Both the position numbers and the translations under genes were made by a program. Below the pieces are notes generated by a model. That model saw only the letters and a program-made list of their open reading frames with translations, was not told the DNA's origin and searched no databases. Below, one piece after another: positions 1 to 1,962 of a stretch of DNA of 64,000 bases (the first letter of the stretch is position 1; each line of letters opens with the position of its first letter). This DNA is from Escherichia coli (GTDB taxonomy: Bacteria > Pseudomonadota > Gammaproteobacteria > Enterobacterales > Enterobacteriaceae): the NCBI RefSeq assembly GCF_003334335.1, contig NZ_QOWQ01000024.1, one strand, 5' to 3'.

Positions 1-64
1 ACGCGAGGCATCGTCTTAACGAGGCACCGAGGCGTCGCATTCTTCAGATGGTTCAACCCTTAAG

Positions 65-667
65 TTAGCGCTTATGGGGATCCTCCCCGCCATTGGCAAA
101 CCAGCTTGCGGCAAGGCGCTGTTTTTCTTTCATCTGACGTTGCAGGCTATCACCGGTGATCAGCCGTAACGCCTGATTCGGGCAAGCGCGAACGCAGGCC
201 GGACCTTCTGGCAAGAAATCACACAGGTCGCATTTCACCGCGACGGTCTGGACACCAGGTTCCCAGCGCAGCAAAGCATGTTGTGTTGGCGCGTTTTCTT
301 CGCCGTCTTTGAGTGAGCCTTCAGCCTGAAAAACATATTGCGCATGGGCATTCACCGGACGGCTTCCTGAAGCGCTGATTGCGCCAAATGGGCAGACCAC
401 GGCGCAAAGCTTGCAGCCAATACAGAGGCTTTCGTTGAGTTGGATCGCATCATCCCTCTGAGAGATGGCATTGACCGGGCAGACCTGCAGGCAAGGGGCT
501 TCCTCACAGTGATGACACACGACAGGGGCAGTGATTGTTGACGTCTTCGCCAGGGCCAGGCGCGGGTGTTGCTGTAAACCTTGCGTTTTATGCACGTCCG
601 AACAGGCAGCGAGACAGGTATTACATCCTGTACACCACAGTGGTTCGGCCACCACAAAGCGGTTCAT
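65..667 (-). CDS. hyfA: hydrogenase-4 component A, 4Fe-4S ferredoxin-type subunit
   Basis: ORF-track frame 65..706 with repeated CxxCxxCxxxCP ferredoxin motifs. Start placed at the internal ATG (665-667) because an AAGGAG Shine-Dalgarno lies 6 nt upstream and a sigma-54 -24/-12 motif sits between the two candidate ATGs. Confidence 0.85.
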   Translation of the reverse strand: MNRFVVAEPLWCTGCNTCLAACSDVHKTQGLQQHPRLALAKTSTITAPVVCHHCEEAPCLQVCPVNAISQRDDAIQLNESLCIGCKLCAVVCPFGAISASGSRPVNAHAQYVFQAEGSLKDGEENAPTQHALLRWEPGVQTVAVKCDLCDFLPEGPACVRACPNQALRLITGDSLQRQMKEKQRLAASWFANGGEDPHKR

Positions 668-707
668 GTCGGCTCCTTGAAAATGATATGAAACATTGCA
701 TTTCATA

Positions 708-724
708 TTGCATAAAGGATGCCA
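708..724 (-). promoter_or_regulatory. sigma-54 type -24/-12 promoter element (TGGCAT-N8-TGCA) upstream of hyfA
   Basis: Reverse complement of 708..724 reads TGGCATCCTTTATGCAA, with GG and GC at the canonical sigma-54 spacing, about 40 nt upstream of the hyfA ATG. The hyf operon is reported to be sigma-54 dependent. Confidence 0.55.
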
Positions 725-819
725 TTCTGATTAACTCAATATATTCAATAAGTTATGTATTAACTGGATTCTGAACGGTACAAAAATGATGGTCATTAAC
801 GTTCAGCAAAAAATGGATT

Positions 820-833
820 CGACACCCGTGTCG
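820..833. promoter_or_regulatory. inverted repeat CGACA-N4-TGTCG, candidate enhancer-binding-protein site for the hyf sigma-54 promoter
   Basis: Perfect 5-bp arms read directly, about 100 bp upstream of the -24 element, a typical distance for sigma-54 activator sites. Confidence 0.3.
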
Positions 834-849
834 CAGGGGAAAGCGAGAA

Positions 850-865
850 TGTGATCTTGATCACG
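850..865. promoter_or_regulatory. CRP-like site TGTGA-N6-TCAC
   Basis: Sequence ATGTGATCTTGATCACG matches the CRP consensus TGTGA-N6-TCACA at 9 of 10 core positions. Location is the bcp-hyfA intergenic region. Confidence 0.35.
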
Positions 866-919
866 AGAAGTGAGGTATGCTGGCCGCAAGCGCAGCCAGC
901 ACGGAATGGAGCAAAGTAA

Positions 920-1390
920 TCAGGCGTGTTCTTTCAGCCAGTTCAGCACAACGTCGTGGTGATTGCTGGTTTTGAAATCGTCAAAGACATGTTCGATTTT
1001 GCCATCAGCGTCAATCAGGAAGCTGATGCGATGAATGCCATCGTAGGTTTTGCCCATGAAGGACTTTTCACCCCAGACGCCGAATTGTTCGCACACCTGG
1101 TGGTCCTCATCAGACAGGAGCGTAAAGTTAAGCAGCTCTTTTTCCGCAAAACGGGAGAGTTTTTCGGGTTTATCGGTGCTGATACCCAGCACATCAACGC
1201 CCGCTTTTTTCAACTCATCCATGTTATCGCGTAAGCCGCAGGCCTGTACGGTACAGCCGGGGGTCATGGCTTTCGGGTAGAAATAAACCAGAACACGCTG
1301 TCCCTGGAAGTCGGTCAAATTAACTTGTTCTCCGTCTTGATCCGGCAAGCTAAATTTCGGTGCGATATCACCGGCTTTCAGTGGATTCAT
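920..1390 (-). CDS. bcp: thiol peroxidase / peroxiredoxin Bcp
   Basis: 156-aa ORF with peroxiredoxin motif (PKAMTPGCT) and full-length match to recalled E. coli Bcp. Confidence 0.95.
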   Translation of the reverse strand: MNPLKAGDIAPKFSLPDQDGEQVNLTDFQGQRVLVYFYPKAMTPGCTVQACGLRDNMDELKKAGVDVLGISTDKPEKLSRFAEKELLNFTLLSDEDHQVCEQFGVWGEKSFMGKTYDGIHRISFLIDADGKIEHVFDDFKTSNHHDVVLNWLKEHA

Positions 1391-1962
1391 TACTTAACTC
1401 CATCCTGTTCATCATGTTGGGAATAATTGACGACGTTAATACTGCCTTGTGCATTGAGTTCTGTACATAGGGCTTTGAACGCTTGCTCAATATTTGCTGC
1501 GTCCGCAGATGCGGGGCTGTGGGCGGTTATCTGAATATGCAACTGCGCAGCCCGTTCATTTTCAGCAGGTTGCGTGCGCGACACCAGCTCCGCAATGTTC
1601 ATATGATGCGCGTCGAAAAGTGCTGTGAAGCGTTCAATTAAATGCGGGGAGTCTGCCACATCGACCTGAACCCAGACAGATGCTGGCATTGGCGGACGCG
1701 GACGCGCCGTCGTGCGCTTCATCACGATTAAAAGATCCAGTTCGGCACCTTTCAACGGTAACGTTGATTCAATCAGAGTAATGGCATTCCATGAACCGGA
1801 AAGCAGCATAATAAACGTGAACTCTTCTCCCAGCATCGCCAGGCGACTGTCTTCAATATTACAGCCGCAACTACTGACATGACGGGTGATGGTGTTCACA
1901 ATTCCAGGGCGATCGGCACCCAACGCAGTGATCACCAGATAATGTTGCGATGACAGTGTCAA
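1390..1962 (-). CDS. gcvR: glycine cleavage system transcriptional repressor
   Basis: ORF-track frame 1390..2028. Recalled GcvR (190 aa, begins MTLSSQHY) corresponds to a TTG start at 1962. The stop overlaps the bcp ATG by 1 nt. Confidence 0.85.
   Translation of the reverse strand: MTLSSQHYLVITALGADRPGIVNTITRHVSSCGCNIEDSRLAMLGEEFTFIMLLSGSWNAITLIESTLPLKGAELDLLIVMKRTTARPRPPMPASVWVQVDVADSPHLIERFTALFDAHHMNIAELVSRTQPAENERAAQLHIQITAHSPASADAANIEQAFKALCTELNAQGSINVVNYSQHDEQDGVK

Follow-up and report, generated by a model that had tools for sequence, protein, structure and literature searches.

The region at positions 668..870 of the window (minus strand), between bcp and hyfA, is hyfAp itself, the known promoter and enhancer region of the hyf (hydrogenase 4) operon, and not a relative of it. 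Here the window means the whole stretch of Escherichia coli DNA that we analysed, 64,000 nucleotides in length. We consider it highly likely that this region is the known hyf sigma-54 promoter and enhancer, combining an FhlA/HyfR activator site with an IHF-like bend and an input from CRP. FhlA/HyfR control is textbook knowledge for the hyf operon, and both the sigma-54 promoter of hyfA and its CRP site have been published before with their exact sequences. An earlier note, made from the sequence alone, had proposed a -24/-12 element, an inverted repeat and a CRP-like palindrome upstream of hyfA, and all three occur essentially where it had placed them, at 724..709, 833..820 and 865..850. It had offered these explicit positions as its gain; they are accurate apart from two slips, which we correct below, although two of the three motifs already stand in published tables. 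The features to which we refer are as follows.

Positions 901..878, minus strand: GC-rich hairpin, GCTGGCTGC..GCGGCCAGC, right after the bcp stop codon (922..920).
Positions 865..850, minus strand: CRP-cAMP site CGTGATCAAGATCACA, a near-consensus palindrome, assigned by ChIP-seq identity and matrix score.
Positions 833..820, minus strand: inverted repeat CGACACGGGTGTCG, CGACAC-GG-GTGTCG, a probable FhlA/HyfR upstream activating sequence.
Positions 795..780, minus strand: 16-bp block TGACCATCAYTTTTGT, or TGACCATCA(T/C)TTTTGT, invariant in the clade alignment and centred at about -90.
Positions 755..743, minus strand: IHF-like site TAACTTATTGAAT, the reverse complement of WATCAANNNNTTR, agreeing at 8 of 9 consensus positions and centred at about -52.
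Positions 724..709, minus strand: sigma-54 -24/-12 element TGGCATCCTTTATGCA (hyfAp), assigned by ChIP-seq motif identity and matrix score.
Positions 697..698, minus strand: predicted transcription start, 30-31 nt 5' of the hyfA ATG; the alternative ATG 706 lies upstream of it.
Positions 673..678, minus strand: Shine-Dalgarno sequence AAGGAG, read from the sequence, 5 nt before ATG 667.
Positions 65..667, minus strand: hyfA coding sequence, starting at ATG 667, with its 3' end changed by an IS insertion in the present strain.

Read along the minus strand, window positions 1..1500 carry the end of gcvR, then bcp (1390..920), and then the start of hyfA. Positions 76..1500 are 100% identical to E. 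coli K-12 MG1655, in which bcp and hyfA are annotated as b2480 and b2481, and the promoter sequence shows no difference from the hyfAp of the E. coli hyfABCDEFGHIJR-focB operon in EcoCyc. Of 5426 complete E. coli genomes, 4298 contain a 401-bp stretch spanning the promoter (window 560..960); a sizeable share of the species has no hyfA promoter and, presumably, no hyf operon. The present strain also departs from the K-12 operon, in that an IS4-family element breaks the operon right after its promoter-proximal gene. Identity to K-12 hyfA ends at position 76; beyond the junction (75/76), window 1..75 belongs to the end of an IS4-family element that is present in multiple copies. The same element is annotated in strain ML35 as an IS421-family transposase between hyfA and hyfB. 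Its insertion substitutes the last residues of HyfA, which is 200 aa long here compared to 205 aa in K-12, and cuts off hyfB and the genes after it from the promoter and hyfA; the exact IS/hyfA junction is present in 44 of the 5426 complete genomes. The target sequence, GGGGAGGATCCCC, resembles the GC-rich sites that IS186-type elements prefer. In the search with the 401-bp query, the bcp end alone was matched in 1128 genomes, one example being an ST131 strain.

The sigma-54 element reads TGGCAT-N6-TGCA, or canonically TGGCAT-N5-ATGCA, and its GG and GC doublets lie 12 nt apart, the spacing of TGGCAC-N5-TTGCW. This corrects the first of the two slips, since the motif had been written as TGGCAT-N8-TGCA at 708..724, whereas the spacer is N6 and the motif ends at 709. 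We scored the window with a Barrios-type sigma-54 matrix of 186 promoters (Table 2 of PMC7658346), and 724..709 obtained 12.2 bits, ranking fifth among 127,970 window positions. Occupancy of hyfA by sigma-54 is established by published data that quote the exact sequence: Bonocora et al. (2015; PMC4591121) assigned sigma-54 ChIP-seq peak OS23 to hyfA, and the motif of that peak, ATGGCATCCTTTATGCA, is identical to TGGCATCCTTTATGCA at 724..709. The same paper notes that the hyfA sigma-54 promoter is flagged as experimentally confirmed in EcoCyc. In addition, Shimada et al. (2021; PMC8743547) recovered the bcp/hyfA spacer among the strongest genomic SELEX peaks of the RpoN holoenzyme, at 92% for the holoenzyme alone and as the highest peak with NtrC present. 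The agreement with reported sigma-54 control that the earlier note had asserted is thus borne out by both the ChIP-seq peak and the SELEX peak. We also retrieved 45 loci that encode relatives of HyfA, 41 of which were analysed, and a -24/-12 box lies upstream of hyfA in most of the enterobacterial loci, which extends the conservation of this promoter across genera.

The best sigma-54 matrix score in the window, 15.7 bits, belongs to another site, TGGCATTACTGTTGCA at 61693..61708 (plus strand), inside an opposite-strand ORF. This site matches the published intragenic antisense sigma-54 ChIP-seq site IA18 in cysK. The distance between the hyfA and cysK motifs (window 717 to 61700) is about 6.8 kb less than in K-12, for which we used the published coordinates 2,599,173 and 2,531,400, and the present strain therefore lacks a K-12 segment that lies in between. 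A speculative candidate for the missing segment is the CPZ-55 prophage of the eut operon.

With the transcription start set 19 bp past the centre of the motif, as Bonocora et al. did, it falls 31 nt before hyfA (PMC4591121). A longer hyfA ORF opens at ATG 706. The earlier note had placed the -24/-12 motif between the two possible hyfA ATGs and had drawn from this its support for ATG 667; the motif is in fact 5' of both ATG 706 and ATG 667, and only the predicted start (698/697) falls between them. Given this position of the start, ATG 706 is excluded and ATG 667 is supported, so that the choice of start codon stands on a corrected argument. Primer extension by Skibinski in 2002 is likewise said to have put the hyfA start 30 bases upstream, and the same study reportedly described sigma-54, FhlA and HyfR dependence of hyf as well as binding of HyfR to the region. 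Annotation and conservation lead to the same choice. ATG 667 is the start of K-12 b2481 and is also the start in the PGAP annotation of other strains, the sequence CAAGGAGCC(G)ACATGAACCGCTTT at its ribosome-binding site is kept in all aligned species, and the other genera of the alignment do not preserve the upstream ATG 706. A consensus scan gave no sigma-70 promoter in the bcp-hyfA spacer. The heptamer ATGCAAT occurs twice, 12 nt apart, at 713..707 and 701..695 (minus strand), and its copies overlap the -12 element and the predicted start; the repetition is not kept in Citrobacter or Kosakonia.

We aligned the spacer from E. coli, Citrobacter amalonaticus, other Citrobacter spp., two Kosakonia species, and one metagenome relative, all of which have bcp upstream. 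Other Escherichia species were absent from the contig scan, and Citrobacter therefore supplied the closest outgroups. The aligned spacers have a mean identity of 57-69%, with discrete invariant islands: the CRP half-sites, the inverted repeat, the TGACCATCAYTTTTGT block, the IHF-like YAANNNNTTGAWW, the sigma-54 element as TGGCA...TT.TGC, and the ribosome-binding site with ATG 667. Within E. coli, none of the 16 SNP columns among four spacers (at most 2.7% divergent) falls in any motif (hypergeometric P = 0.0016).

The inverted repeat CGACACGGGTGTCG can be read as a 6-N2-6 palindrome or as a 5-N4-5 one. It is centred at about -129 relative to the predicted start, 110 bp upstream of the middle of the -24/-12 element. 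This distance falls within the roughly 70-150 bp expected of an upstream activating sequence and compares with 86 bp for fdhF and 76 bp for hydN. The sequence CGWCANNNNTGWCG occurs once in the 64-kb window, compared to 0.27 occurrences expected for the whole window. When we scored the repeat with the published 13-site FhlA matrix, it obtained only 4.64 bits (rank 641 of 127,974) and did not stand out above background, and the CRP palindrome scored higher on this matrix (10.26 bits). Of the three matrix scans that the earlier note had suggested, those for RpoN and CRP (see below) thus came out in favor of the proposed sites, and the one for FhlA did not. The matrix penalises the C at position 1 and the GC-rich spacer of the repeat. 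Since the fdhF repeat also scores just 8.2 on the same matrix, we read the low score as a weakness of the 13-site matrix.

Given the poor matrix score, we compared the repeat directly with the FhlA-dependent promoters of K-12. The repeat has the form CGWCA-N4-TGWCG, as do the K-12 repeats CGTCAAAACTGACG (fdhF) and CGTCACTAGTGTCG (hydN), and from their position we infer that these two are the footprinted FhlA sites; the hyc/hyp spacer carries CGACATCATCGACA. The likeness extends to the architecture of the promoters: the FhlA-dependent fdhF, hycA, hypA and hydN promoters all have a -24/-12 box, as hyf does, and FhlA-dependent promoters, with hyf included, have CGWCA-type pentamers 4 bp apart, with centres 76-110 bp upstream of that of the -24/-12 box. 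The repeat of hyf differs from the other FhlA sites in its GC-rich spacer (CGGG) and its low score on the published FhlA matrix. Unlike the rest of the formate regulon, hyf responds to HyfR too. The C-terminal helix-turn-helix regions of HyfR and FhlA are almost identical, with KRTTLLSRM in both, and given recognition helices so nearly alike, both proteins could use the same site.

The hyfA-homologue loci show that this sequence form belongs to hyf promoters in general. A strict CGWCA-N4-TGWCG lies within 300 nt upstream in 21 of the 41 loci, and the pattern has 25 matches in 12.3 kb of upstream sequence compared to 8 in 255 kb elsewhere, a 61-fold enrichment. Upstream of the hyf sigma-54 promoters of distant species, CGACA/TGTCG is the top enriched pentamer that is not AT-rich and is present in all ten species, where an unbiased count gave 25 occurrences compared to an expected 4.8 (P = 7e-11). 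Closer to E. coli, CGACACnnnTG(T/C)CGA is invariant in the seven aligned species or sequences. The left arm does not vary, while the right arm is TGCCG in the six other sequences, and the perfect repeat is found only in E. coli. Since these relatives have a TGCCG right arm, it is not the palindrome as such that is conserved; the conserved unit is CGACAC-N3-TG(T/C)CGA, and the perfection of the palindrome is an E. coli peculiarity.

It could be argued that the repeat is instead the intrinsic terminator of bcp, acting as an RNA hairpin followed by a T run and not as a protein-binding enhancer, and a consensus scan does mark it as resembling a terminator, with its 5-bp stem, loop of 4 nt and T run downstream. 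However, the T run begins 6 nt past the stem, and the minimum-free-energy fold of the bcp 3' region uses a different strong stem, 901..878, and not the repeat hairpin. The TGCCG right arm of the six relatives is moreover a lost pair without compensation, opposite a left arm that stays invariant, and CGACA/TGTCG is also enriched upstream of hyf promoters that do not have bcp upstream. Based on the distant U tract, the unfavoured fold and the uncompensated pair loss, we rejected 833..820 as an intrinsic terminator and regard this reading as very unlikely. The bcp transcript probably ends instead at the GC-rich hairpin at 901..878, the dominant stem of the minimum-free-energy fold, which is itself without a T run. 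Other genera have different GC-rich hairpins at this position, one of them with a T run. No RNA element in the region had an Rfam match at E <= 1.

The sequence of the repeat at 833..820 and that of its orthologs make it very probable that it serves as the enhancer for FhlA/HyfR. The earlier note had put it forward as a possible FhlA or HyfR site, and it remains a good candidate for one: it has the fdhF/hydN form, it is conserved in orthologs, and the helices of HyfR and FhlA are alike. A full-text literature search with the repeat and the 16-bp block sequences returned only unrelated papers, and other papers on hyf or FhlA contained no site-level map of hyfA.

The palindrome CGTGATCAAGATCACA at 865..850, which reads TGTGATCTTGATCACG on the plus strand, is centred at about -160 relative to the predicted start, and the centre of the enhancer repeat lies 31 bp downstream of its own. 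We built a CRP matrix from the ChIP-seq sites of Haycocks et al. other than that of hyfA (106 sites), and 850..865 obtained 19.1 bits, ranking first of 63,985 positions and above 97% of the training sites. Occupancy by CRP, like that by sigma-54, is established by published data that quote the exact sequence. Haycocks et al. (2015; PMC4287617) listed CGTGATCAAGATCACA as the CRP ChIP-seq site for hyfA in ETEC H10407, and Shimada et al. (2011; PMC3105977) named hyfA among the known CRP targets and also recovered it by genomic SELEX. What had been proposed as a CRP-like site is thus identical to a published CRP ChIP-seq sequence, and it too is conserved across genera: in Citrobacter, Kosakonia and the metagenome relative, the half-sites are conserved and the spacer is variable. 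Its distance from the repeat is also maintained, with 31 bp between the two centres in seven genomes and 30 bp in the metagenome locus L070, while the intervening sequence has diverged. Optimal HyfR-dependent expression of hyf, as Self et al. are said to have reported in 2004, needs CRP-cAMP.

We considered whether this palindrome could mainly be an FNR or FhlA/HyfR site. It contains TGAT-N4-ATCA, which agrees with 8 of 10 positions of the FNR consensus TTGAT-N4-ATCAA, and the left half of the Kosakonia site is TTTGA. Myers et al. (2013) included hyfA among 124 predicted FNR sites that were silent in ChIP-seq, and it is one of only five silent sites with earlier evidence for FNR regulation. 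Within the spacer, the published FhlA matrix also scores the palindrome highest (10.26 bits). Yet the bases that discriminate between CRP and FNR are GTGA/TCAC at this site, the FNR ChIP-seq of Myers et al. found no binding at hyfA, and the mismatches to the FhlA matrix fall on its most informative positions, 4 and 11. Together with a CRP ChIP-seq sequence that is exactly that of 865..850 and a CRP score exceeding 97% of bound sites, these points leave an FNR or FhlA/HyfR identity highly improbable, and we retain the palindrome as a CRP site.

A CRP site upstream of the repeat is a trait that hyf shares with fdhF. In K-12, the ChIP-seq CRP site CGTGATGGCTGTCACG lies 33 bp upstream of the CGTCA-N4-TGACG repeat of fdhF, and a CRP-plus-FhlA module may be common to these two sigma-54 promoters.

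Between the enhancer repeat and the -24 box lies an IHF-like site at 755..743, which we named by its likeness to WATCAANNNNTTR, the IHF consensus. The element is kept in the clade as YAANNNN(T/C)TGAWW and matches at 9 of 9 positions in two Citrobacter. A similar IHF-like element is located just upstream of the -24 box in the hyf promoters of Morganella, Providencia and Dickeya. More broadly, the hyf promoters of Proteus, Morganella, Providencia, Dickeya and Pectobacterium share with that of E. coli the sigma-54 box, the CGWCA-N4-TGWCG repeats and an IHF-like element, and the Proteus mirabilis hyf promoter is FhlA- and RpoN-dependent (PMC7658346). In contrast, the hyf promoters of these five genera have no strong CRP site and no 16-bp block. 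Among the loci compared, no strong CRP site was found in hyf promoters outside the bcp-hyfA clade, and the block was absent from those outside the E. coli, Citrobacter and Kosakonia clade. By this sequence comparison, the CRP site and the 16-bp block are additions peculiar to the bcp-hyfA clade.

The 16-bp block at 795..780 is left unaccounted for by the sigma-54/FhlA/CRP model. Apart from the ribosome-binding site, the spacer has no longer invariant run in E. coli, Citrobacter, Kosakonia and L070, and the block is free of SNPs in divergent E. coli. It is absent from the three K-12 FhlA-dependent promoter regions that we examined. A metagenome scan for the block returned 80 loci, six of which are hyfA promoters (five E. 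coli-like, and one from a new relative, L070). The other 74, with neither a sigma-54 box nor a CGACA word close by, resemble chance matches; one recurrent match lies inside a 658-aa ORF that has no E. coli match. Given that the block occurs only in hyfA promoters and in apparent chance matches, there is no hint of a regulon. We rejected the block as a site for IHF, Fur, ArcA, ModE, NarL, NsrR, FNR or CRP, since by eye their consensuses misfit its conserved part; the resemblance to a Fur box, at 14 of 19 positions, is found in E. coli only. A weak sigma-70 reading of the block, ATGACC-17-CAGAAT, was also rejected, as its -10 element is not conserved in the alignment (by eye). In E. coli, a 10-nt inverted repeat, CTGAACGTTA / TACCGTTCAG (771..780 and 797..806; 90% complementary), flanks the block, and its right arm is not kept in other genera.

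The strong conservation of the block raises the possibility that it, alone or with the repeat, is the true FhlA/HyfR enhancer, and that the repeat at 833..820 plays a secondary part. In the E. coli, Citrobacter and Kosakonia clade, no other element of the spacer is as strongly conserved. The block opens with TGAC and includes CATCA, recalling the CGACATCATCGACA of the hyc/hyp spacer, and in several distant hyf promoters the first CGACA-type element is followed by another one about 35-38 bp further downstream. However, the block is without a second CGWCA/TGWCG pentamer, an overlapping 14-mer scores just 4.97 on the FhlA matrix, and hyf promoters outside the clade have the CGWCA repeat but no block. 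We consider this reading unlikely and keep the repeat as the probable activator site. An alternative that leaves the repeat in place is that the hyf enhancer of this clade has an extra input, with the block serving as a regulator site or a non-canonical HyfR contact, or with CRP and FhlA/HyfR cooperating on one helix face via the 30-31 bp spacing. We regard this as possible but tentatively so, and somewhat doubtful on present evidence.

These observations are consistent with the following model of hyf activation. The sigma-54 RNA polymerase would form a closed complex on TGGCAT-N5-ATGCA (724..709), and formation of the open complex would need a sigma-54 activator ATPase, either the formate-responsive FhlA or its paralogue HyfR. 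The activator would most probably bind CGACAC-GG-GTGTCG (833..820), at about -129 and thus some 110 bp upstream of the middle of the -24/-12 element. The IHF-like site at 755..743 (about -52) probably bends the DNA so that the activator meets the polymerase, and CRP-cAMP on 865..850 (about -160), 31 bp or about three helical turns above the enhancer, would add catabolite control. Transcription is predicted to run from about 698/697 and translation from ATG 667. It is the protein on the repeat, the role of IHF and the manner in which CRP helps that we infer here.

Our analysis yields a coordinate map of the region with a corrected start-codon argument, and comparative evidence that the repeat is a conserved activator site whose palindromic perfection is specific to E. 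coli. It also provides two leads that can be tested, namely the invariant block and the nearly constant distance between the CRP site and the enhancer, both of which bear on the poor expression of hydrogenase 4 in E. coli. If the hyf enhancer of this clade does have an extra input, then the block or the CRP spacing might account in part for the near silence of hyf under laboratory conditions.
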